Below are positions 1 to 22,414 of a stretch of DNA of 32,000 bases, piece by piece. Numbering within the stretch: the stretch's first letter is position 1; each line of letters begins with the position of its first letter. Both the position numbers and the translations under genes were made by a program. The notes beneath the pieces are model-generated. The model did not search any database. It saw only the letters and a program-made list of their open reading frames with translations, and was not told where the DNA came from. This DNA is from Formosa sp. Hel1_33_131 (GTDB taxonomy: Bacteria; Bacteroidota; Bacteroidia; Flavobacteriales; Flavobacteriaceae). The stretch lies in the NCBI RefSeq assembly GCF_001735745.1, contig NZ_CP017260.1, forward strand, positions 360,001 through 392,000, read 5' to 3'.

Positions 1-1104
1 TTGTTTTTCTGCATTATGCAATTTTATTTCTTGCATACCATTAATTAGCTCAATAACTTTAGATTGTTCTTGACTGATTTGAGAAAATTGCTTGTAATCT
101 AATTCTCTTTGCTTTTTTAGAAAAAACGAAATCCAAATAAAATATAAAATACTTCCAACTAAGAAAATTAAAAATATTTGAATATTATAATACAATAATA
201 TAACTCCAAAGGTTAATAAATTAAACATAGAAAATAGAACATTAAGTGTAGAGGACGTAAGGACTATTTCTATTCTTTTATGGTCATTTATTCTTTGCAA
301 AATATCACCTGTCATTCGAGTATCAAAAAAAGCTATAGGTAAACTCATTAGTTTTATAAAAAAATCTGAAACTAACGAAATGTTAATGCGAGTACTTAAA
401 TGTAATAGTATCCAACTTCTAATTATTTCTATTGATATTCGTCCAATAAATAAGGCTAATTGAGCAAAAAGAACAAGGTAAATAAAATGAATATCTTGAT
501 TTTTAATACCTACATCAACTATGCTTTGAGTTAAAAAAGGAAAAATTAATTGCAATAAACTACTTGCTACTAATCCAATTATTAACTGAACAATGTATTT
601 TTTATATTTAAGTAAATACTTTGTTAAAAAAGAAATATTTAATTTATGATTATTATCGAATTTAGATTCGTAAAACTTAGGTGTTGGCTCCATTAATAGT
701 ACCAAGCCTTCTTCAGTTTCATCTGAAGAATTATTACCAATCCAATGTTTAAGAAACTCGTCTTTAGTGTATTTTATTAAACCATAAGCTGGGTCAGAAA
801 TAAAATATGTATTATTTTTTATTTCGTATAAAACAACATAATGGTTTTTATTCCAATGTAAGATACATGGTAGAGGCGCTTCAGATAATCTATTTAAAGA
901 TATTTTAGCCCCCAAAGACCTTATGCCTATTTTTTCTAAAGCATCACTAATTCCTAAAATACTACTTCCTTGTCTTGTGGTTTCACTTAAATCTCTAAGT
1001 TCTTGAATAGAAATATTTTTTCCATAATATTTAGATATAATTTTTAGACATGTTGGACCACAATCTTTTAAGTCTGCTTGCTTATAAAAAGGAAATTTTT
1101 TCAA
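1..1104 (-). CDS. C39 peptidase-domain ABC transporter (double-glycine leader-cleaving peptide exporter). Only the N-terminal ~368 aa are present; the gene runs off the left window edge.
   Basis: Absent from the ORF track because it is partial and starts with TTG at 1104..1102, with an in-frame TAA two codons upstream. My translation is (M)KKFPFYKQADLKDCGPTCLKIISKYYGKNISIQELRDLSETTRQGSSILGISDALEKIGIRSLGAKISLNRLSEAPLPCILHWNKNHYVVLYEI... This is a canonical C39 N-terminus with the catalytic Cys (DCGPTC) and His (NHYVV). ABC membrane-domain helices follow (YIVQLIIGLVASSLLQLIFPFLTQSIVD...). Confidence 0.85.
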   Translation of the reverse strand, partial: MKKFPFYKQADLKDCGPTCLKIISKYYGKNISIQELRDLSETTRQGSSILGISDALEKIGIRSLGAKISLNRLSEAPLPCILHWNKNHYVVLYEIKNNTYFISDPAYGLIKYTKDEFLKHWIGNNSSDETEEGLVLLMEPTPKFYESKFDNNHKLNISFLTKYLLKYKKYIVQLIIGLVASSLLQLIFPFLTQSIVDVGIKNQDIHFIYLVLFAQLALFIGRISIEIIRSWILLHLSTRINISLVSDFFIKLMSLPIAFFDTRMTGDILQRINDHKRIEIVLTSSTLNVLFSMFNLLTFGVILLYYNIQIFLIFLVGSILYFIWISFFLKKQRELDYKQFSQISQEQSKVIELINGMQEIKLHNAEKQ

Positions 1105-1116
1105 ATGATTTTATTT

Positions 1117-2220
1117 TTAAACTAAACCATATTGTTTAATCACTTTTTGTTTTAGTGGATTTAAACTCCAGTCTTCCCACGTACATGTACTCGGATTATA
1201 CCCACATTTTAAAGGTTTACTATATAAATCCATTGGATTTTCTATAAAAGCTCTACAATCTGTACAATTAAATCTAAATTCACAGTCTTTACAAGTATCA
1301 ATTTGAGTTTTATTTATTGTCCAAAACTTATTAAAAGTCTTTTCTTTAATAATATCTTTTATTTTAGTTTCTTTTAAATTACCGTGTATTAAATCCATTA
1401 CTGGACAATTTTTAATATTCCCTGATGAATCTATTGAAACTTTTTTATTTAAACATCCATTTTTTTCCTCTAATTCAATATGATTATTTATGTTTTCAAA
1501 ATTTAAGTTTTCTTTATTAATAACTCCACAACACTTCCCTTTATTAAAAGGATATGTAATAAAATATAGTTTACCGAAATGAAGTGGATAGAATCCTTCT
1601 TTTTCAATTGAAAAATCTACGATTTCTGATTTAGGTGAGCTATATATGTATATATGAGATATTGGAGAGTAGTTTAAAATTAAGTCATTTAAATCTTTCG
1701 TAGATACTTCTTCGGAATAAGTCAAATGCATTTCAACATAATTAATATTTGTTTTATTAATTATATCTAATATTTTCTTTTTAAAGTTTAAATTAAATTT
1801 AGAAAGAAACCTTAACTGTACATCGTTGCATCTCAACTCTTCAATTTCAGCTACTAATTGTGTAAACATTGTTTCTGAAAAATTACTCTCATCAATTTCT
1901 ATAATTACATCTTTTAATAACACAAACTCATCATCAACACAGTTTTCTCTTGCGGGATAACTATCTAAATTACTAGAAAAAAAACCTATTTCATTATGTA
2001 GTAAAAACTCTATAAACTCTGAAAATGATTTTTTAGACTCATCATTAATAGTTTCTTCTATTTCATTAATTCTATTTCTATTTAAAATTTGTATTAAATC
2101 AAAATATTCATTTGAAATAAAGTATAATTCATTTCTCAAATAATCAATTATTAAACTTCTTTTGAGTCCTTTAACCACCTTACAACTACTTGAAAGTATA
2201 AAAAAATTATTATTCATCAT
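1117..2220 (-). CDS. SPASM-domain peptide maturase lacking the radical-SAM CX3CX2C motif (grasp-with-spasm type)
   Basis: ORF-track frame 1117..2289. The likely true start is MMNNNFFILSSSCKVVKGLKRSLIIDYLR (ATG at 2220 or 2217), which matches the usual N-terminus of this family. The C-terminus carries a full SPASM Cys set: C-x15-C with G-x4-C (CLNKKVSIDSSGNIKNC), CKDCEFRFNCTDC, then CGYNPSTC. No CxxxCxxC occurs anywhere in the protein. Confidence 0.75.
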   Translation of the reverse strand: MMNNNFFILSSSCKVVKGLKRSLIIDYLRNELYFISNEYFDLIQILNRNRINEIEETINDESKKSFSEFIEFLLHNEIGFFSSNLDSYPARENCVDDEFVLLKDVIIEIDESNFSETMFTQLVAEIEELRCNDVQLRFLSKFNLNFKKKILDIINKTNINYVEMHLTYSEEVSTKDLNDLILNYSPISHIYIYSSPKSEIVDFSIEKEGFYPLHFGKLYFITYPFNKGKCCGVINKENLNFENINNHIELEEKNGCLNKKVSIDSSGNIKNCPVMDLIHGNLKETKIKDIIKEKTFNKFWTINKTQIDTCKDCEFRFNCTDCRAFIENPMDLYSKPLKCGYNPSTCTWEDWSLNPLKQKVIKQYGLV

Positions 2221-2428
2221 TGTTAAAAGTTTTAAAATTAATTGTTTTAGAAATTTGTCTATTTGGATAATAGTCTCGCATATTATCACACTGAAGAAAA
2301 GAATTATATTTTATCATTTTTAACTCATCATGAATAAATGTAATTTGATTATAATAAATCTTTCTAAAATGAAGAGGTATTTTATTAAGTTTTTCCCCTT
2401 TTAACTCTACTTTATTTAAATATTCCAT
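2210..2428 (-). CDS. Hypothetical 72-aa protein between the ATP-grasp and SPASM genes
   Basis: The ORF almost exactly fills the otherwise 191-nt gap between two operon genes. It overlaps the ATP-grasp stop by 17 nt and the proposed SPASM start by 11 nt, a translational-coupling-like layout. I recognise no family. Confidence 0.4.
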   Translation of the reverse strand: MEYLNKVELKGEKLNKIPLHFRKIYYNQITFIHDELKMIKYNSFLQCDNMRDYYPNRQISKTINFKTFNNDE

Positions 2429-3425
2429 TTATTAAATATTTTGCTATTATTTTATCTAAATTATAATTACATGGCTCTGAGACCATTCCATATTGACCTA
2501 CAGGATTTATTTCTAAAAACACATAGTCTCCATTCTTATTTATTATTAAATCTACAGAGCCACAGTTTAACTTTAATTCATTAAAGAGGTTATCTAATTT
2601 TACTTCAACATTTTTAGGTAATTTATATGGTTCTGTTTTATTTGGTTTTTGACTATTGTATTTTCTAAAATCTACTACTGTTTGGTTTGATGATTGAGAA
2701 AATATAACCATTGAAAAGAAGTGCCCGTCCAAGTAGAAAGTTCTAATTTCTGACTCCTTTTCAATTTGTTCCATAATTAGTGATGGGAAAAAGTGAATTT
2801 CTTCATTAGTAGTGTGTAGTAACTCGTCTTCTATAAGTTCGGTATAAGAATAAAATCTTTGGTTACCTATAATATTATAAACTCCATTAGATATAGCTTT
2901 TGAAATAAGATTAGGATTATTTTTACCAAATTCATACATTTGAGTAGTATTTCTAACAATTTTAAAATTTGGTATTTTTAACCCTTGCTTCTTTGCTATT
3001 TCATTAACAATCAGTTTATTCAAATTAAATGTAGGTTTTCCTAAATTAATTTTGCAATTTTGATAAACTTGATAATAAATAAAATCAATTAAATCTTCTA
3101 CTTCATTTTTTATAAGATCACTATTTTTATCAATAAGAGAAGTTAAGTTAAACCCCTTACTAAATAACACATCTTCCTTTTTTAAATCAGTAAAATAAGA
3201 TTTTCCAATACCTCTTCTACGCCACCAACATGCTTTTGCATCAAGTAAATTGAAAACTTTATTGGTCAAAGTGTTTTTAATAAAAATACCTTTAGACGTA
3301 ATTTTATCAAATTTATGTATTTCATCATCTGCATTTAATCTGATGACTTTTTCTCCAAAATATTCCAACCATCTAATTACATCTGAAGTAGAAATATCAT
3401 ATTTAATTGTGAAAATTATAATCAT
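2412..3425 (-). CDS. ATP-grasp peptide maturase (graspetide-type macrolactone/lactam ligase, grasp-with-spasm type)
   Basis: 337 aa. The N-terminus MIIIFTIKYDISTSDVIRWLEYFG is typical of RiPP ATP-grasp maturases from Bacteroidota. The C-terminal GSVDLIINKNGDYVFLEINPVGQYG is the ATP-grasp Mg/ATP-binding core. It lies 11 nt downstream of the precursor genes. Confidence 0.8.
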   Translation of the reverse strand: MIIIFTIKYDISTSDVIRWLEYFGEKVIRLNADDEIHKFDKITSKGIFIKNTLTNKVFNLLDAKACWWRRRGIGKSYFTDLKKEDVLFSKGFNLTSLIDKNSDLIKNEVEDLIDFIYYQVYQNCKINLGKPTFNLNKLIVNEIAKKQGLKIPNFKIVRNTTQMYEFGKNNPNLISKAISNGVYNIIGNQRFYSYTELIEDELLHTTNEEIHFFPSLIMEQIEKESEIRTFYLDGHFFSMVIFSQSSNQTVVDFRKYNSQKPNKTEPYKLPKNVEVKLDNLFNELKLNCGSVDLIINKNGDYVFLEINPVGQYGMVSEPCNYNLDKIIAKYLINGIFK

Positions 3426-3436
3426 GCCTTACTTAA

Positions 3437-3601
3437 TTAATCAACATCGTGTGAATGAGAATCATTATCATTAGCCGTTGTCATAGTATGACGATGACTA
3501 GTATTGGTAGCCGTATTATTAGTTATTTCCTGTTTGCCTCCAGTTATATTTTGCAATTTGGAAGAGCTTAATTGTTCTACTTTAAATTTATTTAGTTTCA
3601 T
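3437..3601 (-). CDS. Precursor peptide P1 (54 aa) with a double-glycine leader
   Basis: Hand translation: MKLNKFKVEQLSSSKLQNITGG|KQEITNNTATNTSHRHTMTTANDNDSHSHDVD*. It has a Bacteroidota GG-type leader and a core with 10 Ser/Thr in 32 residues. It sits 11 nt upstream of the ATP-grasp gene and is below the ORF-track size cutoff. Confidence 0.8.
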   Translation of the reverse strand: MKLNKFKVEQLSSSKLQNITGGKQEITNNTATNTSHRHTMTTANDNDSHSHDVD

Positions 3602-3612
3602 ATTTTTTTTAT

Positions 3613-3780
3613 TTAGTCTGAATCATTTCTGAGTGCATCTTGGTCTGAACAACAGCAAACTGTTTGTCTACGACTACTATGAGTAGGACCTTCAAATGCA
3701 ACTTCTTTCATCTGCCCTGCAGCTACATTTTGTAATACTGAAGTAGATAGTTGTTCGAATTGAAAATTTGATAGTTTCAT
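3613..3780 (-). CDS. Precursor peptide P2 (55 aa) with a GG-type (AG) leader
   Basis: Hand translation: MKLSNFQFEQLSTSVLQNVAAG|QMKEVAFEGPTHSSRRQTVCCCSDQDALRNDSD*. The leader is nearly identical at the nucleotide level to that of P3. There is an 11-nt gap to P1. Confidence 0.8.
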   Translation of the reverse strand: MKLSNFQFEQLSTSVLQNVAAGQMKEVAFEGPTHSSRRQTVCCCSDQDALRNDSD

Positions 3781-3848
3781 AATCTTTAGTTTTAATTATA
3801 TTTGTATTAGTTATACTATTTGTGTCTAGCTTTTAGTATAATAACAAT

Positions 3849-3877
3849 ACACAAGAGGATTAAAAACCCTCTTGTGT
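3849..3877 (-). terminator. Perfect 10-bp stem-loop after P3; candidate partial terminator or processing/stability hairpin
   Basis: ACACAAGAGG (3849-3858) and CCTCTTGTGT (3868-3877) are exact reverse complements with a 9-nt loop. The hairpin lies 20 nt past the P3 stop. No clear U-tract follows on the minus strand. Confidence 0.45.
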
Positions 3878-3897
3878 TAATTGAGAAAAACTATAGC

Positions 3898-4062
3898 TTA
3901 ATCGCTATCCTGTCTACCAGTATCGTGATCTGTACCAGTACATGTTGTTCTTCGTCTTCTAGTGCTTGTAACACCTTCGTCTTCTAAAGCCATAGTTCCT
4001 CCTGCAATATTTTGTAATTCAGAAGTAGATAGCTTTTCAAATTGAAAATTTGATAATTTCAT
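3898..4062 (-). CDS. Precursor peptide P3 (54 aa) with a double-glycine leader
   Basis: Hand translation: MKLSNFQFEKLSTSELQNIAGG|TMALEDEGVTSTRRRRTTCTGTDHDTGRQDSD*. It is the first of the three tandem precursor genes, 101 nt downstream of the OMP gene. Confidence 0.8.
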   Translation of the reverse strand: MKLSNFQFEKLSTSELQNIAGGTMALEDEGVTSTRRRRTTCTGTDHDTGRQDSD

Positions 4063-4117
4063 AATTTCAAAAGATTAGAATTATGCCTACTCTTTTTAAG
4101 GTTTTCGGCTTACCCTG

Positions 4118-4131
4118 ATTGTTGCAACAAT
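4118..4131. promoter_or_regulatory. Perfect 14-bp palindrome ATTGTTGCAACAAT upstream of the precursor genes; candidate operator
   Basis: Exact self-complementarity read directly from the sequence. It lies 55 nt upstream of the P3 ATG, in the OMP-P3 intergenic region. Confidence 0.35.
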
Positions 4132-4163
4132 TTTGTTATCAGATAAAAAACTGATTTATATTT

Positions 4164-6548
4164 TTAATTAAGTCTTTGTTTATCTTCGTTAAATTTAGCT
4201 ATCCTTCTTTGCTTTACATTTTTACTACCAATTTTATAAGTAAGTGAAAGTGTAAAATTTCTCATATCGTTATAAATACTTGAAGACTGTGTGAAATTCT
4301 GATACTGTTCTTCTCCTACATTTCTATTTTGTTTAAATAAATCATTTCCAGATATATTTACTTGAAGGTTCTCTTCAAGTAATCTAAATTTCAATCCTAA
4401 ATCAAGACTAGCTCTGTTTCTTGATTTAAAAAAACCATCTACGTTCGGAAAGCTTTGAAAGAAATTGATTGTAAAAAAGGATGTTCTTTTTTCGTTTAAA
4501 GAAATGGTGTTTTTTGTTGAAAAATAGACACCATAACCATCATAAGATTTTAATGTTTCATTTTCAAAATTTGAATTTGCTTTATTAAAATAAGTACTTA
4601 CAGAATTATAACTATTAACCCATTTAAAAAGTGTTAAACGATGGCTAACATCTAAACCATAAGTGTATTGATTATATAGGTTTTCCGGCTTCGTAATAAT
4701 CTCATTAGAATTTTCATTAGCTATAGTAATAAAGTCTATAACATCAATAAGCTTTGAACCATATAATATTAGCGATAAGTTGTTTTTATAAATGTATGAA
4801 AATTCTAAATTATGAGTAAATGAAGGCAATAAAAAAGGATCCCCCGATTCATAAGAATATGGGTCTGAATAAATTCTGAAAGGATTTAAATTTGAAAAAC
4901 CTGGTCTATCAATTCTTTTTGAATAAGACATAGATAGTGAATGATTTTCTTTTGGATCATATGAAATATATGCACTCGGAAAAATATTATTTAAATTATT
5001 AGTGTTTGTCTGGTTTAATGTAGGAGAGAAACCTTTTAAATAGGTATTTTCGTATCTTAAACCTATTTGTGCAATCCATTTTTCACTTAATTCTTTCTCT
5101 ATTGAAATATATAAGGCTGATGTTCTTTCTTCATATTCGAATTGATTAGACCTGTTTAAATTGATTATTGGAGTTCCATATGTTGTATCGTAGTAAAACA
5201 GACTACTATTATTATTTATAAAAGTTAATTTTCCTCCAACCTCTAAATCAAAAGCATCATAAGGTAGTGTGAAATCTGTTTTTAAAGATGCTACTTCATA
5301 TTTGTTATCAGAATTATTTAGAACAGATGTATTTAAACTATTAACACCATTACCCAGCCTATTAATACTATTGAAATCTATATCATTTGAACTATCTTTT
5401 ACTAAGTAATCGATATTTAAACTGAATTTCTTTCCAATACTATCTAGCTTTAAATCATAATATCCATTAATAGAATGAAAATTATACTTATTTTTATTTC
5501 TTGTTAACGTTGTTAAAATAGAGTCTAAAACAAAATTTTCCTTTTGAATAAAATTACTTATATTATTTCCTCTTTGACTAATATCCCAAAAACTACCGCT
5601 ATAAATAAATCCTGTTTCTGATTTTTCATTTATTTTATAATTCGAATTTAGATTTAGCATTAACCCTTTAGAAGAATCTTTTCTGTCTTTTGATGTATTC
5701 CAAAATCTAGAAGTGTATTCTACATCGTTTGTAGATATAGATTTTTTAGCTTCTGTATCAGCAGAGACGTTCAGTGATATATTTAATTTTTTAGTCGCAA
5801 ATTTCACATTACTGGTTGGTATAAAGGCAGCATATGTTCTTTGTATATATGTAGCTCCAACAGAACCATCCCATCCTAAGTTTGGATTTTTTTTAGTTAC
5901 AATATTAATTAAACCACTGTTTCCTTCAGCGTCATATTTAGCAGGAGGCGTTGTAATAACTTCTATTTTTGAAATATTGTCTGAACGAATACTTCTTAAA
6001 TATGCTTCTAAATCACTACTTGATAAATTGAGCACTCTTCCATCTATTAAAACATTAACACTACTTTTTCCAATAATTTTGATTCCACCACTTGAAACAT
6101 CAATTCTTGGAGTTCGTTGCAAAACTTCTAATCCATCAACTCCTTGAGAAACAATACTATTTTCAACATTAAAAATTAATCGGTCGACTTTTTTTTGGAT
6201 TAAAGGTTTTTTTGCTGAAATAACTATTTCATCTAATTTATTTTTACTGTGTATTAATGTAATATTACCTAAATCAATGTCTTTATTTTTAACTAGTACT
6301 TCTTTAACCCAGTCCTTATAACCAATAAAAGTAACTATTAAATTGTATTTTCCTTTTTTTGATTTTATTGTAAAAGAACCTTGATCGTTGGTTATAGAGC
6401 CTGAAACAAAATTATTATCAACGTCAGTCAATATAACATTCGCAAACTCTATATAGCTTATAGAGTCTTTTACCTTCCCCTTTACAATAATTTGAGAAAA
6501 AGAAAAAAAGGGAATAATTGAGGTTAAAGCTAATAATAAATACTTCAT
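4164..6548 (-). CDS. Outer-membrane beta-barrel / TonB-dependent-receptor-like protein with an N-terminal carboxypeptidase-regulatory-like domain
   Basis: 794 aa. There is a signal peptide (MKYLLLALTSIIPFFSFSQ), then a CarboxypepD_reg-like fold (IVKGKVKD...GSFTIKSKKGKYNLIVTFIGY). A plug-like segment follows (DEIVISAKKP...VDRLIFNVENS...LEVLQRTPRIDV...ISKIEVITTPPAKYDAEGNSGLINIVTKK), then a long barrel rich in aromatic and Asn residues. The C-terminus SLTYKIG plus a basic tail is typical of the Bacteroidota OMP_b-brl_3-type family. Confidence 0.8.
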   Translation of the reverse strand: MKYLLLALTSIIPFFSFSQIIVKGKVKDSISYIEFANVILTDVDNNFVSGSITNDQGSFTIKSKKGKYNLIVTFIGYKDWVKEVLVKNKDIDLGNITLIHSKNKLDEIVISAKKPLIQKKVDRLIFNVENSIVSQGVDGLEVLQRTPRIDVSSGGIKIIGKSSVNVLIDGRVLNLSSSDLEAYLRSIRSDNISKIEVITTPPAKYDAEGNSGLINIVTKKNPNLGWDGSVGATYIQRTYAAFIPTSNVKFATKKLNISLNVSADTEAKKSISTNDVEYTSRFWNTSKDRKDSSKGLMLNLNSNYKINEKSETGFIYSGSFWDISQRGNNISNFIQKENFVLDSILTTLTRNKNKYNFHSINGYYDLKLDSIGKKFSLNIDYLVKDSSNDIDFNSINRLGNGVNSLNTSVLNNSDNKYEVASLKTDFTLPYDAFDLEVGGKLTFINNNSSLFYYDTTYGTPIINLNRSNQFEYEERTSALYISIEKELSEKWIAQIGLRYENTYLKGFSPTLNQTNTNNLNNIFPSAYISYDPKENHSLSMSYSKRIDRPGFSNLNPFRIYSDPYSYESGDPFLLPSFTHNLEFSYIYKNNLSLILYGSKLIDVIDFITIANENSNEIITKPENLYNQYTYGLDVSHRLTLFKWVNSYNSVSTYFNKANSNFENETLKSYDGYGVYFSTKNTISLNEKRTSFFTINFFQSFPNVDGFFKSRNRASLDLGLKFRLLEENLQVNISGNDLFKQNRNVGEEQYQNFTQSSSIYNDMRNFTLSLTYKIGSKNVKQRRIAKFNEDKQRLN

Positions 6549-6607
6549 GTTTTTAATTGATTTGAGACTCTAAACTTACAACTAGATTCAACTTAAACAA
6601 AACTTAT

Positions 6608-6651
6608 GTAGTTGAAATTTATAAATTTCATGTCCGTATTTATAAATTTCA
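6608..6651. promoter_or_regulatory. Two copies of a palindromic operator in the divergent OMP/lanB promoter region
   Basis: GAAATTTATAAATTTC at 6614-6629 is a perfect 16-bp palindrome. The 14-mer ATTTATAAATTTCA recurs exactly 21 bp later (6617 and 6638). The same 14-mer is also found at 11591. Confidence 0.6.
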
Positions 6652-6755
6652 GCCTCTATAATTATTTATAAAACACTCATTTTGAGGTTTTTAAATTTAT
6701 TTTAGGAACTAATTATAAAATCCGTAGATTTACAGTCCCAAAACCTACTTAGTGC

Positions 6756-9008
6756 ATGTTAAAACCTAAAAACCCTTATACTTTTTTCAATACTTATTGT
6801 TTAAGAACACCTCTTTTACCATTGAATCGGGTTTTAAATGCACTACAAAAAAGAGGTTTTGAGGATGAGTCTCTAAAAGAGTATTGGCAAAACACTCATT
6901 TAAAAGAAGCTGTTTTTTTAGCATCGCCCTACCTTTTCTCTGAACTAGAATTACTATTTGAGGGAACAATCACTTCTGTAAAAAAAGCAGAAAAGTTAAA
7001 ACAAAGCTTTTTAAAATATGTTCTCAGAGCCTCCTCTCGTTGTACGCCTTTTGGACTGTTCTCTGGAGTCTCTTTAGGTCATTTTAATGATACAAGTTGT
7101 ATAGAACTAGAAACAACTAAAACCTTGAAACGCCGAACACGTTTGGATGTGAACTATATGGTTGCGCTCTCAAACTATTTAGAAAAAGAGCCCGTCATAA
7201 AAAACCAATTGGTGTTTTACCCCAACAGTTCGCTCTATAAAATTGCGGATCAATATCGATATATTGCATTTGAAATAGATGGTTTAAAACGCTCTTATGC
7301 TGTTGAAGGCATAGAGTATTCGGTTTATATAGAGACCGTCTTAAATGAAGCTAAAATGGGTAAAACCATTACTGAATTGGCCGTTACAATTACGGACGAA
7401 ACGATCACTGAAGAGGAAGCCACCCACTTTATTCATGAACTCATAGACAACCAGGTCTTAAGTAGTGAATTAGAACACTCTATTTCAGGAACTGATATGC
7501 TATCCCAAACACTAGTGACCTTAAAACAATTAAAACAGTGTGACTCTAATATACAAGACCTACTTAGCATTCAAAAAACACTTCAAAAATTAGATGACAC
7601 TGACAGAAATACCAGTGAAGATTATAAAAAATGTAATCCGATTTTAGAGGCCCTTGGCGTGCCTTATGAGACGAAAGATGTGTTTCAAACGGATCTTTTT
7701 ACAACGACTAAAAACAATGCTTTAAACAAAAAAGTAGCGCACGAATTACGCCGGGCTTTACCACTTTTAAGTAGCCTTAACAAAAAAGATCACAACCCTC
7801 ATTTAGAGCAATTCAAAAAAGCGTTTAAAGAGCGTTATGAAACAAGAAAAATTCCATTAGCTATGGCTTTGGATATAGAAATGGGAGTTGGCTACATTCA
7901 AAATGAAGCTGTTTCAAATACCGTTTCGTTTTTAAATGACATTACGCCTCAAACAGATCACTCCTCTTCTCAAAACTTCTCTTTATCAGAAATTGAAATT
8001 AGCATTCAAAAATTAATGTTTGATGCATTAAAGAATCAGCACTATAGCATTGAACTAAAGGAAGCAATTTTCGCGGATCGTGAAGTGTCTATAGATCATT
8101 TACCTGACACCCTTTCCGCACTCATTGAAGTGATTACTCTAAACAATGAAGAATGTGTTTACATACACTCTTTTGGAGGTTCCAATGGGGCTAATTTACT
8201 TGCTCGGTTTTGTGAGGAGACTGGAGAATTATTTGATTACGTTAAAGAAATGACCTGTATAGAACAGCAGATGAACCCACACAGTGTTTTAGTTGAACTC
8301 ATCCATTTGCCTGAAGCTAGAGTTGGAAATGTGATTAAAAGACCGCATTTAAGAGCTTATGAATTGCCCTATCTCGGCAAGTCTAATCTGCCGTTAGAAC
8401 AGCAAATTAATATTAATGATGTTTTAGTATTTATTAAAAACAACCGTATTGTTTTATGGTCAAAAAAATTAGACAAAGCCATTCTACCTCGTTTAACAAA
8501 TGCTCATAATTACACAAAAAATACGCTTCCTATCTATCATTTTTTATGTGATTTACAAACTCAAAATATTCAAAAAAAGCTTGGATTTTCTTGGGGCGCA
8601 CTCGCCAACAATCATTCCTTTTTACCTAGAGTGTGTTATAAAACCCTCATTCTTTCCAAAGCCACTTGGATTATTGAAACTAAAAAATTTCAATCTTTAT
8701 TTAAATTAGACAAAAACGGAGCGAACTTATTGGATTTAATAAGCGGGTGGAGAGCAACTATTCAAATGCCTCAATATGTTCAGTTAAAAGAAGCCGATAA
8801 TACGTTACTTATAAATCTCGAAAATACAACAATGCTTCATTTGTTATTCGATTCGGTTAAACGCAAAACACAGTTTATCTTAGAAGAATTTTTATTTACA
8901 GAAAAACCTATCGTAAAAAATGAGGATAATGATTTTTTTACGAATCAATTTGTAGTGTCATTTTACAATGAGGAAAAACTAAAAAAAGCTGTTAATTATG
9001 CAAACTAG
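6756..9008 (+). CDS. Lantibiotic dehydratase family protein (LanB N-terminal, tRNA-Glu-dependent glutamylation domain)
   Basis: 750 aa. The N-terminus NPYTFFNTYCLRTPLLPLN and the RCTPFGLFSGVSLG motif are hallmarks of the Lant_dehydr_N family. The size fits a stand-alone glutamylation domain. Confidence 0.85.
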   Translation: MLKPKNPYTFFNTYCLRTPLLPLNRVLNALQKRGFEDESLKEYWQNTHLKEAVFLASPYLFSELELLFEGTITSVKKAEKLKQSFLKYVLRASSRCTPFGLFSGVSLGHFNDTSCIELETTKTLKRRTRLDVNYMVALSNYLEKEPVIKNQLVFYPNSSLYKIADQYRYIAFEIDGLKRSYAVEGIEYSVYIETVLNEAKMGKTITELAVTITDETITEEEATHFIHELIDNQVLSSELEHSISGTDMLSQTLVTLKQLKQCDSNIQDLLSIQKTLQKLDDTDRNTSEDYKKCNPILEALGVPYETKDVFQTDLFTTTKNNALNKKVAHELRRALPLLSSLNKKDHNPHLEQFKKAFKERYETRKIPLAMALDIEMGVGYIQNEAVSNTVSFLNDITPQTDHSSSQNFSLSEIEISIQKLMFDALKNQHYSIELKEAIFADREVSIDHLPDTLSALIEVITLNNEECVYIHSFGGSNGANLLARFCEETGELFDYVKEMTCIEQQMNPHSVLVELIHLPEARVGNVIKRPHLRAYELPYLGKSNLPLEQQININDVLVFIKNNRIVLWSKKLDKAILPRLTNAHNYTKNTLPIYHFLCDLQTQNIQKKLGFSWGALANNHSFLPRVCYKTLILSKATWIIETKKFQSLFKLDKNGANLLDLISGWRATIQMPQYVQLKEADNTLLINLENTTMLHLLFDSVKRKTQFILEEFLFTEKPIVKNEDNDFFTNQFVVSFYNEEKLKKAVNYAN

Positions 9009-9858
9009 ATTTTTTTTAGGGGATGAATGGATTTACTATAAATTGTATTGTGGTAAACGAACAGCGGATCATATTCTTGTGGATATTATAAAGCCATTTA
9101 CTGAAAAACTATTAAAAGAAAACCTAATCACCAAATGGTTCTTTATTCGGTATCACGACCCTAACCATCATTTACGGGTGCGCTTTCATTGTGAAGATCT
9201 TTCTAAAATAGGGACGATTATTAATACCTTTAAAAATGCGATCGACCATCAAGTTGCTAATGACTTTATTTGGAAGGTTCAAACAGATACCTACCAAAGA
9301 GAAATTGAACGCTATGGGAAACTCACAATGATTGGATCAGAGAATCTGTTTTTTCATGACAGCAGCACTAGCATTAATGCTTTGAATTTGATTGAAGATG
9401 AGGAACTCTTATTTTTATTTGTTTTAAAATCCATAGATGCATTGTTAAGTGTTTTTGAATACGATTTAAAAGCTAAAATTAGTTTCTCTAAAGTGAACCT
9501 GACTTCTTATAGAAATGAGTTTAAAGCGGAGAAAAACTTCAGCAAACAGCTAAATAAAAAATATCAAAAATTAAGACCTAAAGTGGAATCGTTCATGGCT
9601 TTAAAAGAAAGTAGTGATTATGACGCTCTCTTAAACTTAATAACGACTAAGAATAGAGAAATCGAAACAATTAAAACACCTATTTTAGAGTTGCATAAAA
9701 ATAATAAATTAGAAGTTCCGTTAAATCATTTACTATCTAGTTATATACACATGATGGTCAACCGTCAATTTAGAGACAAACAACGTTTATTTGAATTGGT
9801 TTGTTATGATTGCCTATTTCGATATTACAACAGCCTATTTGCAAAACAATTAAATTAA
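8998..9858 (+). CDS. Thiopeptide-type bacteriocin biosynthesis domain protein (LanB C-terminal / SpaB_C glutamate-elimination domain)
   Basis: 286 aa. WIYYKLYCGKRTADHILVDIIKPF...KWFFIRYHDPNHHLRVRFH is the signature of Lant_dehydr_C. It overlaps the upstream gene by 11 nt, giving a split LanB as in thiopeptide systems. Confidence 0.8.
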   Translation: MQTRFFLGDEWIYYKLYCGKRTADHILVDIIKPFTEKLLKENLITKWFFIRYHDPNHHLRVRFHCEDLSKIGTIINTFKNAIDHQVANDFIWKVQTDTYQREIERYGKLTMIGSENLFFHDSSTSINALNLIEDEELLFLFVLKSIDALLSVFEYDLKAKISFSKVNLTSYRNEFKAEKNFSKQLNKKYQKLRPKVESFMALKESSDYDALLNLITTKNREIETIKTPILELHKNNKLEVPLNHLLSSYIHMMVNRQFRDKQRLFELVCYDCLFRYYNSLFAKQLN

Positions 9859-9864
9859 CTCAAC

Positions 9865-11541: not shown

Positions 11542-11581
11542 ATTCAAGTTGTTGATTTAAAAAGTCTTGGCTAATTATTTT

Positions 11582-11604
11582 GTTGTTGATATTTATAAAT
11601 TTCA
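11582..11604. promoter_or_regulatory. Third copy of the palindromic operator, upstream of peptide P4
   Basis: GTTGTTGATATTTATAAATTTCA matches 6608-6630 at 21 of 23 positions. The 16-mer at 11588-11603 is 15/16 identical to the perfect palindrome. GTTGATATTTATAAATTTCAAC (11585-11606) is itself a 22-bp near-palindrome. It lies 65 nt upstream of the P4 ATG. Confidence 0.6.
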
Positions 11605-11668
11605 ACATATAAAATAGCATTAAATCAAAATTATAGCAGTAGATTTATAAAACTCTAAATTTAAAATT

Positions 11669-11815
11669 ATGAAAAAAACAGAATTAAAAAAAGAAAAACT
11701 TGGAATTAAAAAATTTCAAATTTCAAAAATCAACAACCCTCAATTAATAATTGGTGGGAATGCTAATTTAGGTGATGATGATGACGGCGATCATCCAACA
11801 CTAGTAACTAAATAG
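11669..11815 (+). CDS. Small GG-leader peptide P4 (48 aa)
   Basis: Hand translation: MKKTELKKEKLGIKKFQISKINNPQLIIGG|NANLGDDDDGDHPTLVTK*. The leader resembles P1-P3 (KFQISKI...LIIGG versus NFQFEKL...LQNIAGG). It has its own operator upstream and a strong terminator downstream. It is below the ORF-track cutoff. Confidence 0.7.
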   Translation: MKKTELKKEKLGIKKFQISKINNPQLIIGGNANLGDDDDGDHPTLVTK

Positions 11816-11860
11816 AAAAAACACACACCATATTCTAATTTATTATGGTGTGTGTTTTTT
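11816..11860 (+). terminator. Rho-independent terminator / attenuator after P4
   Basis: ACACACACCATA (11821-11832) and TATGGTGTGTGT (11844-11855) form an exact 12-bp stem with an 11-nt loop. A T-run follows (to 11860) and an A-run precedes it. Confidence 0.75.
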
Positions 11861-11875
11861 AAATTAATAAACCCT

Positions 11876-14053
11876 ATGAACTATAAATCTATTGCTATTT
11901 TAATTCTATGTATTTTAATTATGCAATGTAAAAATAAGAAAGAATTAGTGTTAGCACCAATTAATGTTGTTGTTGATGAAATTCATGGACAAAGAATAGA
12001 AGATCCGTATCGTTATATGGAAAATATTGATGATAGTATTTATATAAATTGGTTAAAAGGTCAAAAAGAAAATAAAGAATCAGTAGTAGGTAATATTTCT
12101 AATAGAGATAATTTAAAATTAAAAATAGAAAAGTTTCAAGAAAGGACTCCTGAAAAAATCTCAAAACTAACAATCATGGATAATGATGTTTACTTTTATT
12201 TAAAAGAGAACACAACATCTAAAGTAAAAAAACTGTATTCAAGAGATGGCTTTAAAGGAGAAGAAGTTTTATTATATAATCCTGAAAACTTTGATAATGA
12301 ACATCCTTATGTAATAAATTATATTAAACCTAGTTGGGATACTTCAAAAGTAGTTATAGGCTTAACAAAAAATGACGAAGAATTTTCAATATTAAAAATC
12401 CTTGATGTAAAAACTAAAAATTTAGTTGGAGATATTAAAATAACTAATACACTTCCAACTTCTCTAGGAGGTGTTAAATGGTTGCCTGATGATTCTGGTA
12501 TTATTTATGTAAATGTACCAGTAATTGATTCTAAATCTAAAAAATATTTACACAATTCGGAAGTTGTACTATATAGATTTAATGATAACCCTAAAGAATC
12601 TCCCACTGTTATTTTTTCAAAAAAGGAGAATCCAAAACTGAAAATAAAGGAAGAAGATTTCCCGTTAATTTACTTAGACAACCAAAATGTTGAATATATT
12701 ATTGGAGTGGTTACTAGAGCTTCAAGATATAGAGATACTTATTATATAAAAATAGATGAACTTAATAATAAAAAAATTAAATGGGAGCCATTATTTAAAA
12801 AAGAAGAAAAGATTAAACGCTTTATTGTTACAAAAGATGAAATCATTTATATGACTTCAAAAACAACTCCCAATTTTCAAATATGTAAAACCTCACTAAG
12901 TAATCCTGATTTTGAAAATCCACAAGTTTTAGTTTATGAGAATACTAAAGAAGTTATTACAGATTTTGTTATAACAAAACAAGGCTTGTTTTTCGTAAAA
13001 ATAAAAAATGGTGTTGATGCAAAACTTTATAAAATAGAAAATAATCAAGAAAAAAATATCGAGATCCCAAAACCTTCAGGAAGTATAAATGTATCCTCCA
13101 AAAATGAAAACTCTAATGATTTATGGATATCGATTGATGGGTGGACGCATAAAAAAGAGACCTATAAATATGATTATGATAAAAGTGTATTTATCCCTCA
13201 AAATTTATACCCAGTAGCAGAATATTCGTTACTCAATGATGTGGTTGTTAAAGAAATTGAAGTACCATCGTATGATGGTACATTAGTTCCATTATCTGTA
13301 ATTTATAAAAATAGCATTAAATTAAATGGAGAAAACAGAATGTTACTTACTGGCTATGGCGCTTATGGCATAACTGATAAACCTGTGTTAGACGACTATT
13401 TACTAAACTGGATTAATGAAGGAGGAATCTATGCTTTAGCACATGTGAGAGGTGGAGGAGAAAAAGGAGATGCATGGCATAAAGAAGGGTTTAAAACAAC
13501 AAAACCAAATACATGGAAGGACTTTATTTCGTGTACTGAATATTTGATTGATAAAGAATATACTTCAAATAAAAATTTAGCTGTTTGGAGCGGAAGTGCT
13601 GGAGGAATACTTGTAGGTAGAGCGATTACTGAACGTCCAGATTTATATGCTGCCGCAATAATACGGGTCGGATTACTAAATACTTTACGTTCAGAGTTCG
13701 CTCCAAACGGAAAAAATAATATTAAAGAATTTGGAACAATTAAAGATTCATTAGAATTTAAATCTCTATTAGAAATGGATGCGTTTCACAACATAAAAGA
13801 TGGTGTTGAGTATCCAGCAGTTTACTTAACAGGAGGTATGAATGATGCTAGAGTTGCTGTTTGGCAACCTAGCAAATTTGCTGCAAAATTGCAAAAAGCA
13901 AATGCTTCTGAAAATCCTATTATTTTAGATATTGATTTTGATGGTGGTCATGGATTTGATGCAACTTCAAATAAAAAAAATAATGAATTAGCAGATATAC
14001 TTTCTTTTGCACTCTGGCAAACTGGACATCCAGATTATCAATTGAATAGATAG
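11876..14053 (+). CDS. Prolyl oligopeptidase (S9A family), lipoprotein, copy 1
   Basis: I prefer ATG 11876 (MNYKSIAILILCILIMQCKNK, signal plus lipobox-like Cys) over the track's GTG 11852, which lies inside the terminator stem. The N-terminal beta-propeller region and C-terminal hydrolase domain carry an intact triad context: GSAGG (Ser), GGMNDARV (Asp), DGGHG (His). Confidence 0.9.
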   Translation: MNYKSIAILILCILIMQCKNKKELVLAPINVVVDEIHGQRIEDPYRYMENIDDSIYINWLKGQKENKESVVGNISNRDNLKLKIEKFQERTPEKISKLTIMDNDVYFYLKENTTSKVKKLYSRDGFKGEEVLLYNPENFDNEHPYVINYIKPSWDTSKVVIGLTKNDEEFSILKILDVKTKNLVGDIKITNTLPTSLGGVKWLPDDSGIIYVNVPVIDSKSKKYLHNSEVVLYRFNDNPKESPTVIFSKKENPKLKIKEEDFPLIYLDNQNVEYIIGVVTRASRYRDTYYIKIDELNNKKIKWEPLFKKEEKIKRFIVTKDEIIYMTSKTTPNFQICKTSLSNPDFENPQVLVYENTKEVITDFVITKQGLFFVKIKNGVDAKLYKIENNQEKNIEIPKPSGSINVSSKNENSNDLWISIDGWTHKKETYKYDYDKSVFIPQNLYPVAEYSLLNDVVVKEIEVPSYDGTLVPLSVIYKNSIKLNGENRMLLTGYGAYGITDKPVLDDYLLNWINEGGIYALAHVRGGGEKGDAWHKEGFKTTKPNTWKDFISCTEYLIDKEYTSNKNLAVWSGSAGGILVGRAITERPDLYAAAIIRVGLLNTLRSEFAPNGKNNIKEFGTIKDSLEFKSLLEMDAFHNIKDGVEYPAVYLTGGMNDARVAVWQPSKFAAKLQKANASENPIILDIDFDGGHGFDATSNKKNNELADILSFALWQTGHPDYQLNR

Positions 14054-14099
14054 CGTAGCATTAACAATAGTTAAAATTAGAGTCATATAAGAATTGTTT

Positions 14100-16268
14100 A
14101 TGAAAATCATTAGATTAAAACTATTACTTTTAGTTGTGTGTGTTTTTAGTTGTAAAACTAACAACAATACATCTATAGAAATGTTGCCAGAAAAAGAAGT
14201 GGTTGAGGAATATTTTGGAACGACTGTTAAAGATTCTTATAAATATATGGAAAACCTCAATGATACTATCGTTTTAAATTGGTATAAACAACAAAGTAAC
14301 TATGCTAAGAATAAAATTGATAAGATTCACAATCGAAATAAAATTTTGAAGTTTCAAAATATTATAACTAACAATACATCTAAAATTTCAAATATTTTAA
14401 TAACTAATAATAACCTATATTTTTATTTAAAGAATCATAATGACACAAAAGAGCTCTTTTATAGAGAAGGGATTCATGGTGAGGAGTATTTTTTATTTAA
14501 TCCTGAAAAACATAAAAAAGGAAGTGCTATAAATTATATTGCTCCTAGTTGGGATGGATCAAAAGTAGCAATAGCTATGACTAAAGATGACTTAGAAATT
14601 GGCAATATCATTGTTTTAGATGTATCTAATAAAAAACTATACAACGAATCCATAAATAATTGCTGGCCTTCAGCCTTAGGTGGAATAAGATGGCTTGCTG
14701 ATAATTCTAGATTTACCTACGAATATATCCCCGTTATTGATAAAAAAGAAAAGAATTATTTATTTAATACCGAAACTCGTTTACATGTTTTGGGAGAAAA
14801 CCCTGTTAACGACAGAATATTATTTTCAAATAAAAACAATCCTGAGATTGAAATAAAAGAAGAAGATTTCCCTGAGGTTTCTATTAGCAACGAAAAAAGC
14901 AATTACATATTTGGGAGTGTTTGGGGGGCTAGCTATTATGCTGATTACTACTCCTCCTCTATTGAAAATATTAACAACCAAAAAATCACATGGAAGCCTC
15001 TTTTTAAAAAAGAAGATTTAATAAAGCGGTTTTATTTAGAGGGTGATTATATAGTTTATTTATCCGCAAAAAAAGCTAAAAATTTTGAGATCTGTAGAAC
15101 TTCATTAATTAATCCAAATTTTGAAGATCCAGAAATTTTAGTCTCCGAAGATGAATCATCTGTAATCACAGATTTAACTTTAACAAGCAAAGGATTGTTT
15201 TTTGTTAAAACAAAGAATGGAGTTGAGGCTAAGTTATATCAATTTATTAATAAGAATAAGATCAATAATATTACTCTACCCAAAGAAGCTGGTTATATTA
15301 ATGTTTCTTCTAATGGGAATTTATTCCCTGACTTGAGAATTGAAATTAAAGGTTGGTTGTCCGACAAAGAACGTTATCAATTTAATCATAAAACAAATCA
15401 GTTTACTAAAGAACAATTAGCCAAAGAAAATGGCAATAATGATGAATTATTTGATGGAATTATAATTGAAGAAATAGAAATCATATCGCATGATGGAGTG
15501 AAAGTTCCATTATCACTAATTTATAACAAAGACCTAGAATTAAATGGCCAAAATAGAGTGCTAATAAAAGGATATGGAGCATATGGAATAACTCAAAAAC
15601 CTTTTTTGGATCCTTATATACTGCCTTGGCTAAAAGAAGGTGGGATTTATGCGATGGCGCATGTAAGAGGAGGAGGAGAAAAAGGCGACTTCTGGCATAA
15701 AAGTGGGTATAAAGAAACAAAACCTAATACATGGAAAGACCTAATAGCCTGTTCGGAATATCTTATCCATAAAAAGTACTCTTCTAGTAGTAAAACTGTT
15801 ATTTATAGCGGCAGTGCTGGGGGTATTTTAATAGGTCGAGCCATAACTGAAAGACCAGATTTGTTTGCAGCAGCTATTATAAGAGTTGGAGTACTAAATA
15901 CTTTAAGGTATGAGTTTTCACCAAATGGAAAAAATAATACTAAAGAGTTAGGTTCAGTCCAAGATTCCATTGGATTTAAAGGTTTGCTTGAGATGGATGC
16001 TTATCAGCATATTGAAAAAGGAGTAAAATACCCCGCAGTATACTTGACAGCTGGATTAAATGATTCTAGAGTATCCGTTTGGCAACCAGGGAAATTTGCC
16101 GCTAAACTACAAGCTGCAACCACTTCAAATAATCCAGTATTTCTTAATGTAGATTCAGAAGGAGGACATGGACTTGATACTTCTAAAAATAAGAAAAATA
16201 AAGAAATTGCCGATATCCTCTCTTTTGCATTATGGCAAACAGGGCATCCAGATTTTCAGTTGAAATAA
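14100..16268 (+). CDS. Prolyl oligopeptidase (S9A family), lipoprotein, copy 2 (tandem paralogue)
   Basis: I prefer ATG 14100 (MKIIRLKLLLLVVCVFSCKTNN, lipobox Cys) over the track's TTG 14094. The protein is collinear with copy 1, sharing long identical runs (GYGAYGIT, AHVRGGGEKGD, TKPNTWKD, GRAITERPDL, ADILSFALWQTGHPD). Triad contexts GSAGG, GLNDSRV and EGGHG are intact. Confidence 0.9.
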   Translation: MKIIRLKLLLLVVCVFSCKTNNNTSIEMLPEKEVVEEYFGTTVKDSYKYMENLNDTIVLNWYKQQSNYAKNKIDKIHNRNKILKFQNIITNNTSKISNILITNNNLYFYLKNHNDTKELFYREGIHGEEYFLFNPEKHKKGSAINYIAPSWDGSKVAIAMTKDDLEIGNIIVLDVSNKKLYNESINNCWPSALGGIRWLADNSRFTYEYIPVIDKKEKNYLFNTETRLHVLGENPVNDRILFSNKNNPEIEIKEEDFPEVSISNEKSNYIFGSVWGASYYADYYSSSIENINNQKITWKPLFKKEDLIKRFYLEGDYIVYLSAKKAKNFEICRTSLINPNFEDPEILVSEDESSVITDLTLTSKGLFFVKTKNGVEAKLYQFINKNKINNITLPKEAGYINVSSNGNLFPDLRIEIKGWLSDKERYQFNHKTNQFTKEQLAKENGNNDELFDGIIIEEIEIISHDGVKVPLSLIYNKDLELNGQNRVLIKGYGAYGITQKPFLDPYILPWLKEGGIYAMAHVRGGGEKGDFWHKSGYKETKPNTWKDLIACSEYLIHKKYSSSSKTVIYSGSAGGILIGRAITERPDLFAAAIIRVGVLNTLRYEFSPNGKNNTKELGSVQDSIGFKGLLEMDAYQHIEKGVKYPAVYLTAGLNDSRVSVWQPGKFAAKLQAATTSNNPVFLNVDSEGGHGLDTSKNKKNKEIADILSFALWQTGHPDFQLK

Positions 16269-16281
16269 GACTCTCTGAAAA

Positions 16282-16419
16282 ATCTTTTTTCTTGTCAAGC
16301 TGAACCTGCCTACCGTCAGGAAGTCCTGCCTGACGGTAGGCAGGTTTATTTTAGCTTCTCATAATTATTGGTTTTCAATACATTGAGATTCTGAAATAAA
16401 CCTACCATTCCAACAAAAA
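16282..16419. repeat. Repeat copy A (~135 bp), upstream flank of the toxin-antitoxin pair
   Basis: It shares ATCTTTT..TT.TCAAGCTGAA with 17091-17223. It also shares AGCTTCT(C/T)ATAATTATTGGTTTTCAAT(A/T)CATTGAGATTCTGAAAT (45 nt, 2 mismatches) and AAACCT(A/G)CCATTCCAACAAAA. Each copy carries a different hairpin insertion. Confidence 0.65.
16303..16352 (+). terminator. Strong rho-independent terminator after the second prolyl oligopeptidase gene
   Basis: AACCTGCCTACCGTCAGG (16303-16320) and CCTGACGGTAGGCAGGTT (16329-16346) form an exact 18-bp stem with an 8-nt loop, followed by TTTATTTT. Confidence 0.8.
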
Positions 16420-16516: not shown

Positions 16517-16738
16517 ATGGACATACAAACACGAAAAATAGAATTTGTACAGGCATTTTTAAAACTGCAAAGTGAGGAAATGATTTCTCTTTTTGAAAGC
16601 ATTCTAAAATCGGGAAATAAAGATGATTTTTATCCAATGAGTATAGATGAATTGAATAAACGTATTGACAAATCAGAAAAAGATTTTGAAACTGGGAAAT
16701 CTAAAAACCATGATGAAGTTTTTGCAAAATACAGCTAA
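16517..16738 (+). CDS. Putative antitoxin (73 aa) of a type II TA pair
   Basis: A small acidic protein immediately upstream of a ParE/RelE-like toxin, overlapping it in a TAATG junction. The assignment rests on context; I do not recognise a specific family. Confidence 0.55.
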   Translation: MDIQTRKIEFVQAFLKLQSEEMISLFESILKSGNKDDFYPMSIDELNKRIDKSEKDFETGKSKNHDEVFAKYS

Positions 16739-18511: not shown

Positions 18512-18513
18512 AG

Positions 18514-22412: not shown

Positions 22413-22414
22413 AA

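Follow-up and report, generated by a model that had tools for sequence, protein, structure and literature searches.

Two separable RiPP pathways that may share one regulon and one export route in a genomic island of Formosa sp. Hel1_33_131

The window analysed here is a stretch of 32,000 nucleotides from the flavobacterium Formosa sp. Hel1_33_131 (contig NZ_CP017260.1, positions 360,001 to 392,000), and its left part carries two divergent sets of genes for peptides that are made on ribosomes and modified after translation (RiPPs). We tentatively read them, at a little under even confidence, as one regulon with two separable RiPP pathways and one export route, in which the small peptide P4 is the probable autoinducer that switches on a graspetide operon. 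The reading is built on the gene families, the recurrence of the synteny, the conservation and covariation of an operator, the lineage of the exporter and the absence of LanC, and from these we infer every biochemical step, the binding of the operator and the signalling role.

The region would be a horizontally acquired island of two modules. The cargo module is a canonical Bacteroidota grasp-with-spasm operon of an outer-membrane beta-barrel protein (OMP), the precursors P3, P2 and P1, an ATP-grasp ligase, an LPL-family protein, a SPASM-domain protein, a C39-peptidase ABC exporter (C39-ABC) and HlyD, and its ATP-grasp enzyme would form Thr/Ser-Asp omega-ester rings in the core T.CTG[ST]DHD....D.D. 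The second module, the cassette, is a LanC-less derivative of the class I lanthipeptide layout, with LanB-N, LanB-C, a regulator joining tetratricopeptide repeats (TPR) to an AraC domain, the LanA-like P4 and two prolyl endopeptidases (POP1 and POP2). Here the split LanB would dehydrate Thr in the Cys-free acidic core of P4, the C39 exporter would cut off the double-glycine (GG) leader and export the peptide, and the lipoprotein-type POPs would trim it outside the cytoplasm, probably at a conserved P-T-[ILV] site. The regulator, an AraC protein anchored in the membrane, would sense the matured P4 through its periplasmic TPR domain. It would bind an 18-bp palindrome upstream of P4 (positive feedback) and a tandem pair in the divergent spacer, and would so turn on the LanB operon together with the OMP-graspetide operon. 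A signalling branch, which the first-pass annotation of the window had allowed for, is plausible.

Composite loci in other genomes

The two halves had been taken for one functional unit, and in part this stands: they are linked by a recurrent architecture, a conserved operator and an exporter of LanB lineage, but they are separable modules, each mostly found alone, and the LanB cassette also with other partners. Homologues of both do lie together elsewhere. The same divergent composite architecture is present in Tenacibaculum sp. TC6 (L090), in a metagenome-assembled genome (L091) and in two metagenome contigs (L108 and L116), with protein identities of 51–75%, and at least five lineages have the composite in this head-to-head form. 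The composite loci came from the protein database and a metagenome scan, and the 80 loci kept from the genome scan with LanB contain no composite; the frequencies carry this ascertainment bias. A grasp system is found near the split LanB in 1 of the 80 genome loci, and the composite makes up 2 of ~25 metagenomic grasp loci with enough upstream sequence. In L087 and L083 the grasp systems occupy other positions. For the 1643 biosynthetic gene clusters (BGCs) of graspetide group 14 (PMC13097080), lanthipeptide dehydratase is not among the listed co-occurring families, the lowest of which is given at 17.3%.

The cassette is also seen with quite different neighbours. It stands divergent to an operon of OMP, peptide, radical-SAM (rSAM), GT9 and ABC genes in L172, to an operon of rSAM, peptide, HlyD-like and MacB genes in L173, to genes for AraC, NHLP-like or small peptides, cNMP, OEP, HlyD and ABC proteins in L089 and L176, to LytTR and a TonB-like OMP in L175, and to genes for DUF6402 proteins in L087.

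The whole two-module island may be integrative and mobile, as its sequence context suggests. The end of the composite cluster of Tenacibaculum sp. TC6 adjoins a tyrosine integrase and a tRNA gene (L090, 16641–18116). In L087, the interval between POP2 and the grasp operon (17374–17672) holds relics, namely a 54-aa N-terminal ABC/C39 fragment and, on the opposite strand, a LanB-N start, the first 27 residues of which are identical to LanB-N of the window. Since L087 carries these relics of a second cassette, recombination among islands is indicated.

Regulator, operator and exporter

The regulator consists of an N-terminal signal-like segment, a TPR domain of ~350 aa, one transmembrane helix (~residues 380–400) and a C-terminal AraC helix-turn-helix (HTH), as judged by Pfam and hydropathy, and because of this order the TPR domain should face the periplasm. 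The gene directly follows LanB-C in 26 related loci. RRNPP receptors have a cytoplasmic TPR domain, usually with an XRE-type HTH; here the transmembrane helix separates the TPR domain from the AraC HTH, and the resemblance to RRNPP quorum sensing is one of logic only.

The shared operator proposed in the first-pass annotation is real. The motif ATTTATAAATTTCA has 5 matches in the window (0.39 are expected from shuffles), in the spacer and before P4. The tandem operator is located at about -147/-126 from the ATG of LanB-N in the window and in L089, L090, L091, L108, L116, L173, L174 and L007, and the single copy precedes the cassette peptide gene, 39–57 nt after the AraC stop codon; more than 10 loci share these fixed positions. 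The Aquimarina loci, in which the regulator is ~35% identical, show a different motif (TTTTCAGGAATC) at both places, so the operator and the regulator co-vary. A third perfect copy is present in L087 (17799–17816), 128 nt upstream of the precursor of that locus's own grasp operon, which is only 33% identical and differently placed. The same 18 positions overlap a spurious call of a 38-aa open reading frame (ORF; MKFINFN...). In L102 and L104 the interval that separates the AraC gene from the OMP-grasp operon contains the operator pair. Where a grasp operon occurs alone, the matches are weak, with 3 mismatches, and mostly fall inside genes.

The C39-ABC gene at the left edge is the only exporter of the window, as had been claimed. 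In L001, a matching marine metagenome contig, the full gene encodes 728 aa and is followed by a gene for an HlyD/AprE protein of 430 aa. The unit, set earlier at 1–16352, has its genes as placed but extends to the left of base 1 by the rest of the ABC gene and the HlyD/AprE gene. In the neighbour-joining (NJ) tree the ABC protein of the window groups with the exporters of LanB clusters (65–78% identity, against 36–44% for typical grasp-operon exporters). By sequence relationship the exporter is of the LanB-cluster lineage, though it is placed inside the grasp operon.

Several observations weigh against one regulon with P4 as its inducer. The NJ trees carry no support values, and those of LanB-N and ATP-grasp are incongruent (L090 pairs with L091 in the former and with the window in the latter), which argues that the halves were exchanged and not co-inherited. 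The distance from the operator to LanB-N is fixed whatever the neighbour; the operator is therefore certainly a promoter element of the cassette itself and only plausibly one of the cargo, and no operator is found directly before P1–P3. The cleavage site assumed for the POPs is not universal, since the L087 peptide core has no Pro despite two POPs and the T-I-S motif of L174 follows Asp. In Kordia, true lanthipeptide clusters with LanC have this regulator-peptide pair as well, and P4 could simply be the end product of the cassette.

The incongruent trees would also suit two functionally independent clusters that became adjacent as RiPP cassettes piled up in a recombination-prone island, and so would the relics of a second LanB-N and ABC gene in L087, the integrase and tRNA gene abutted by the L090 copy, the low GC content of the island (24–36%, against 37–43% outside, in the neighbouring arginine operon) and the finding that each half mostly occurs alone. 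We nevertheless consider such independence improbable: the head-to-head arrangement is seen in at least five lineages despite the exchange of modules, the perfect L087 operator stands before a non-orthologous grasp operon, and the single exporter, of LanB lineage, is found inside the grasp operon. On these three points chance adjacency was set aside as the leading explanation.

Graspetide operon

The pairing of ATP-grasp and SPASM genes had been assigned to the TIGRFAMs 'grasp-with-spasm' context, and both TIGR04192 and TIGR04193 indeed score above their cutoffs. In 80 metagenomic loci fetched with an ATP-grasp alignment, the usual order is OMP, precursors, ATP-grasp, a ~70-aa protein, the SPASM protein and C39-ABC. 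Since the OMP gene precedes the precursors in this order (in most grasp-with-spasm loci with enough upstream sequence), the OMP is the first gene of the grasp operon, an association already noted by Makarova et al. 2022 (PMC8939145). The same authors placed an 'LPL family' directly upstream of the SPASM gene in the Bacteroidetes 'Branch 5'; in our loci the LPL homologues mostly hold this place between the ATP-grasp and SPASM genes, and the 72-aa protein of the window carries the conserved motif [LI]PL[FH]F[RK]KIYYN. All of the 1643 BGCs that form group 14 have TIGR04193 (Carter et al. 2026, PMC13097080). The left half is thus already described bioinformatically, as Branch 5 of Makarova and as RODEO group 14, and no characterised product is reported for the grasp-with-spasm branch in the literature covered.

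The precursor cores across the grasp loci share the pattern [ST]..R[RH]..T.CTG[ST]DHD....D.D, to which P3 is an exact fit. P1–P3 are precursors of the GG-leader type that share this family core motif, with Thr/Ser and Asp/Glu positions suited to omega-ester rings. The cis-regulatory DUF805b RNA motif lies 22 nt upstream of the ATG of P3, the first graspetide precursor, and has the same position in L090 (9672–9706). In L064, L065 and L173 a GCCGAAAA...AAAGAGTAGG element is present 20–27 nt upstream of precursor genes of the lanthipeptide and rSAM types, and RiPP precursor genes of Bacteroidota may in general have a DUF805b-like element as their 5' leader.

The description of the SPASM protein as SPASM-only is borne out by the match to TIGR04193 without the radical-SAM Cys triad: the protein has no Radical_SAM match in Pfam and no CxxxCxxC motif. 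Eight Cys residues of the C-terminal part are invariant, and C13 and C131, outside the SPASM region, are nearly so. The AlphaFold2 model (pLDDT 87.6) is composed of an N-terminal beta3-alpha3 domain (75 residues, similar to a RiPP recognition element, RRE), a partial, degenerate rSAM-like alpha/beta barrel and the SPASM domain. In Foldseek the N-terminal domain is matched by the RRE protein TbiB1 (TM-score 0.70), and the best whole-chain matches are CteB and SuiB, which are RRE-rSAM-SPASM maturases, and anSME. As modeled, the protein looks like a radical-SAM maturase minus the SAM cluster, with the leader-binding domain retained. Two auxiliary Fe-S sites would also remain, beside the RRE-like domain for leader binding, and since the SAM cluster is lost and the RRE-like domain kept, it is more likely to act as a leader-binding or redox/Fe-S partner than as a radical enzyme.

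The first-pass annotation had gone further and proposed a hybrid: one set of GG-leader peptides would be the substrate of LanB, ATP-grasp and the SPASM protein alike, and the products, both dehydrated and bridged by esters, would form a new RiPP class. P1–P3 are rich in Ser/Thr, the locus, operator and exporter are held in common, and the four leaders all fit [LF]x[LIF]xKx5[LI]...GG, all of which would favour such a hybrid. The kinship of the leaders holds at the level of this pattern, but the P2 leader ends in A-A-G and LxLxKx5L is the generic export-type GG leader of Bacteroidota (PMC7268733), so the likeness of P1–P4 is weak evidence for shared enzymes. The graspetide core of the composite L090, SSHTLRHSTSCTGTDHDAGRHDSD, is identical to the cores of L094 and L095, which have no LanB within 7.3 kb, and a hybrid ester-plus-dehydro product is therefore unlikely. 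The LanB clade, in turn, always brings its own dedicated P4-type peptide, whatever the neighbour, and the leader of this peptide (KFQI[AS]KI.N) is much better conserved. With the graspetide cores unchanged where LanB is missing and the LanB clade equipped with its own peptide, the hybrid product was rejected as the leading explanation, and we regard it as very improbable. Nor does the combination form an undescribed RiPP class: its left half was described before, and the composite is a recurrent arrangement of cargo plus controller.

LanC-less LanB cassette

In the 80 kept genome loci with a related split LanB, LanC adjoins LanB-N in 61 (tblastn with Kordia LanC), and the order in Kordia algicida is LanC, LanB-N, LanB-C, TPR/AraC and a Cys-rich LanA. 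The split LanB of the window had been described as lacking LanC, and this is confirmed by both searches made: the ORFs of the island contain no LANC_like domain and tblastn with Kordia LanC gives no match in the window, the rest of the genome being outside the search. The closest relatives of the window also have no LanC, and they form their own clade in the LanB-N NJ tree; its loci have the TPR/AraC regulator and, as a rule, one POP or two.

LanB-N aligns with NisB and MibB, and the residues aligned with the NisB positions R..R.T, D, D and R are conserved. LanB-C keeps the invariant motifs FFIRY, HLRxRF, YxREIERYG and H...NR. Since the catalytic motifs of both proteins are kept, dehydration of Thr by the split LanB is plausible. 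Lanthionine formation in the predicted product of the cassette is not possible, because LanC is missing and the P4 core is devoid of Cys. Neither YcaO cyclodehydratase nor [4+2] pyridine synthase domains, the marks of linear azol(in)e-containing peptides and thiopeptides, were found among the ORFs of the island.

We class the right half as a novel form of the class I clusters of Bacteroidota. No description of the LanB/TPR-AraC/POP cassette was found in a literature search that left most subscription journals outside its coverage, and a survey of RiPPs in Bacteroidales reports no LanB in that order (PMC10352776). In Aquimarina longa (L020, 1990–5869) a second LanB-N/LanB-C pair, a LanC-like gene and more GG peptides are present just upstream of the cassette, so LanB modules can be duplicated within one island.

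P4 and the prolyl endopeptidases

A GG-leader peptide gene comes after the regulator in all 26 loci in which the regulator follows LanB-C. The P4-type peptides of the LanB clade have the far more conserved leader KFQI[AS]KI.N..I.GG. The P4 core NANLGDDDDGDHPTLVTK is free of Cys, likewise in the relatives of the clade, and the cores accompanied by POPs are short, Asn/Asp-rich and Cys-free, with an x-T-[ILV]-x end (HPTLVTK, PIKTTPTI, PIKTSPTI, PPKTTPTV, RTISDQH).

POP1 and POP2 align over their full length with bacterial prolyl endopeptidases, which are their best solved relatives, and are also similar to the RiPP macrocyclases PCY1, GmPOPB and OphP. Both have the S9A fold and the catalytic Asp/His motifs. 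POP1 has an N-terminal signal/lipoprotein-like sequence and POP2 a signal sequence with a Cys lipobox-like motif; the earlier assignment of two periplasm-facing, Pro-specific peptidases agrees with this prediction. Oligopeptidase B was considered and rejected as their identity: the sole NCBIfam match, OpdB, is far below its cutoff, and the full-length matches are prolyl endopeptidases.

A cassette with POPs could also yield its own bioactive end product, such as a peptide cyclised by the POPs, a fragment 2-oxobutyrylated at the N-terminus or a dehydropeptide that stays linear. In that case the TPR/AraC protein would be no more than a pathway-specific regulator, and the only link between the halves would be the exporter borrowed from the grasp operon. 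Such a role would agree with the cassette never having its own transporter (the exporter is usually in the neighbouring operon), with the resemblance of the POPs to PCY1, GmPOPB and OphP besides ordinary prolyl endopeptidases, and with the LanC-bearing Kordia relatives, in which this regulator-peptide pair belongs to an ordinary lanthipeptide cluster. Moreover, several cores have two Pro residues five apart (PIKTTP, PIKTSP), a spacing that recalls amatoxin-type processing; such double-Pro cores are limited to some relatives, and the cores of the window and of L087 have one Pro and none, respectively. The cores are also short, very acidic, Cys-free and poorly conserved save for x-T-[ILV], and the operator of L087 stands in front of a grasp operon. 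A separate end product therefore seems unlikely to us, though far from negligible, and P4 as inducer of the graspetide operon remains the preferred reading.

A wider form of this preferred reading makes the unit of LanB-N/LanB-C, TPR-AraC, GG peptide and POP a portable quorum-sensing cassette of marine Flavobacteriia with a RiPP as its peptide pheromone, which would auto-induce through the palindrome and switch on the adjoining bacteriocin-like cargo. This generalisation is possible, if doubtful. To our knowledge, peptide-pheromone signalling has not been established in Bacteroidota.

In two further loci (L102 and L104) the TPR/AraC, GG-peptide and POP genes are divergent to the OMP-grasp operon with no LanB between them, and the peptides end in DTIDTQ, like TISDQ[HK] of L087 and L174. 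We do not take these loci to show that the cassette can do without LanB: the edge of L102 has a LanC-like fragment, and LanB may lie beyond it.

Layout of the locus and borders of the island

The coordinates are collected in Table 1. The ORF map and the family scans recover every gene of the first-pass list at its position, as well as the shared divergent spacer, but a conserved 72-aa gene (2210–2428) had been overlooked. The LanB-N and LanB-C ORFs overlap, with PF04738 and PF14028 on separate ORFs.

Table 1. Features of the island in window coordinates
Feature	Position	Strand	Remarks
C39-peptidase ABC exporter (PCAT), N-terminal 368 aa	1..1104	-	cut at window edge; Peptidase_C39 E=1e-36 and ABC_membrane (Pfam), TIGR03796/TIGR01193
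SPASM-domain protein	1117..2220	-	TIGR04193, 342.4 bits (cutoff 175)
LPL-family small protein, 72 aa	2210..2428	-	directly upstream of SPASM gene; called as gene in metagenomes
ATP-grasp peptide ligase (graspetide synthetase)	2412..3425	-	TIGR04192, 362.8 bits (equivalog cutoff 230)
Precursor P1, 54 aa	3437..3601	-	GG leader; core NTSHRHTMTTANDNDSHSHDVD
Precursor P2, 55 aa	3613..3780	-	leader end AAG; core ...THSSRRQTVCCCSDQDALRNDSD
Precursor P3, 54 aa	3898..4062	-	core TSTRRRRTTCTGTDHDTGRQDSD; fits T.CTG[ST]DHD....D.D
DUF805b RNA motif (Rfam RF02914)	4084..4118	-	44.6 bits (gathering score 35.6)
OMP, 794 aa, TonB-receptor-like	4164..6548	-	CarbopepD_reg and OMP_b-brl_3 (Pfam)
Divergent spacer, 207 bp	6549..6755		between OMP and LanB-N genes
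Tandem operator	6613..6651	.	perfect palindrome TGAAATTTATAAATTTCA at 6613-6630, second copy at 6634-6651; 21 bp spacing
LanB-N, glutamylation domain of split LanB	6756..9008	+	PF04738 E=2e-132
LanB-C, glutamate-elimination domain of split LanB	8998..9858	+	PF14028/TIGR03891
TPR-transmembrane-AraC regulator, 558 aa	9865..11541	+	HTH_18 and TPR_12 (Pfam), hydropathy
Single operator copy TGATATTTATAAATTTCA	11587..11604	.	~65 nt upstream of P4 ATG
P4 peptide, 48 aa	11669..11815	+	LanA-type GG leader KLGIKKFQISKINNPQLIIGG; Cys-free acidic core NANLGDDDDGDHPTLVTK
POP1, prolyl endopeptidase 1 (S9A)	11876..14053	+	alternative start GTG 11852; Peptidase_S9_N and Peptidase_S9; 725 aa in metagenome call
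POP2, prolyl endopeptidase 2 (S9A)	14094..16268	+	~45% identical to POP1

A terminator-like hairpin is present after P3 (3849–3877), and a second hairpin, with arms of 22 nt, lies directly 3' of P4 (11811–11865) and overlaps the alternative GTG start of POP1. Both fit attenuation of the transcript, with precursor favoured over enzyme. A terminator hairpin is also found after POP2 (16301–16348). The right border of the island is at a ParD/ParE toxin-antitoxin pair, where the GC content climbs from ~30% to ~40%. The pair (16517–17052) is bracketed by a direct repeat of 49 nt, 94% identical (16349–16397 and 17118–17166), and this has the look of an att-like duplication or of an inserted cassette.

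Outside the island, the interval 17237–31869 contains a complete arginine-biosynthesis operon (argH, M20 deacetylase, argB, argF, argD, proC, argC, argG, GNAT) and, beyond it, a gene for a laminin-G protein of 1556 aa with a C-terminal sorting domain of the type IX secretion system, in keeping with a Bacteroidota host. A sigma-70 promoter scan was uninformative (94 sites, 100.7 expected); Bacteroidota promoters deviate from the sigma-70 consensus.

Comparison with known systems and significance

The left half matches the grasp-with-spasm systems (Branch 5, PMC8939145; group 14, PMC13097080) gene for gene, with ATP-grasp, SPASM, LPL, diverse GG precursors, C39-ABC, HlyD and a pfam14905 OMP. Unlike in the usual systems, it is here head to head with a LanB/TPR-AraC/POP cassette and has an exporter of the lanthipeptide-cluster lineage. 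The right half shares with the Bacteroidota class I lanthipeptide clusters (pinensin type; Kordia-type L050) the split LanB followed by TPR-transmembrane-AraC, the LanA-like GG peptide with an LxLxKx5L leader and a C39 exporter nearby. It differs from them in that LanC is absent, the core is Cys-free, short and acidic, one or two prolyl endopeptidases are added, and LanB-N belongs to a clade of its own.

The S9A genes directly after the precursor gene resemble the arrangement of FlaP/LanPB in class III lanthipeptides and of GmPOPB, PCY1 and OphP. In contrast to these systems, the POPs have signal/lipoprotein-type N-termini and are predicted to act after export; since the C39 domain removes the GG leader, they would not be leader peptidases.

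The nisin and subtilin loci are autoinduced, and the operon of the RiPP streptide is under shp/rgg quorum control. With the operator placed upstream of the precursor as well as of the operons for the enzymes and the cargo, peptide feedback of the same kind would be a suitable model here. The sensor is different from the NisRK two-component system and from cytoplasmic Rgg/RRNPP receptors: here, in Gram-negative Bacteroidota, a single membrane protein would act as a one-component system, with the AraC HTH at one end and the TPR domain outside the cytoplasm.

For genome mining the locus advises caution, as what seems a 'hybrid' cluster is better understood as a cargo with its controller. The SPASM protein of more than 1600 graspetide clusters is an apparent ex-radical-SAM enzyme with a leader-binding domain, and LanB dehydratases seem to have taken on roles outside lanthipeptide synthesis here, with neither LanC nor Cys. 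The locus brings together the precursors and enzymes of two orphan pathways, plus a candidate inducer. If the peptide-sensing switch is true, it would be a first handle on peptide cell-cell signalling in Bacteroidota, and the regulator, operator and inducing peptide would together be a lever with which silent RiPP clusters of marine flavobacteria could be activated.

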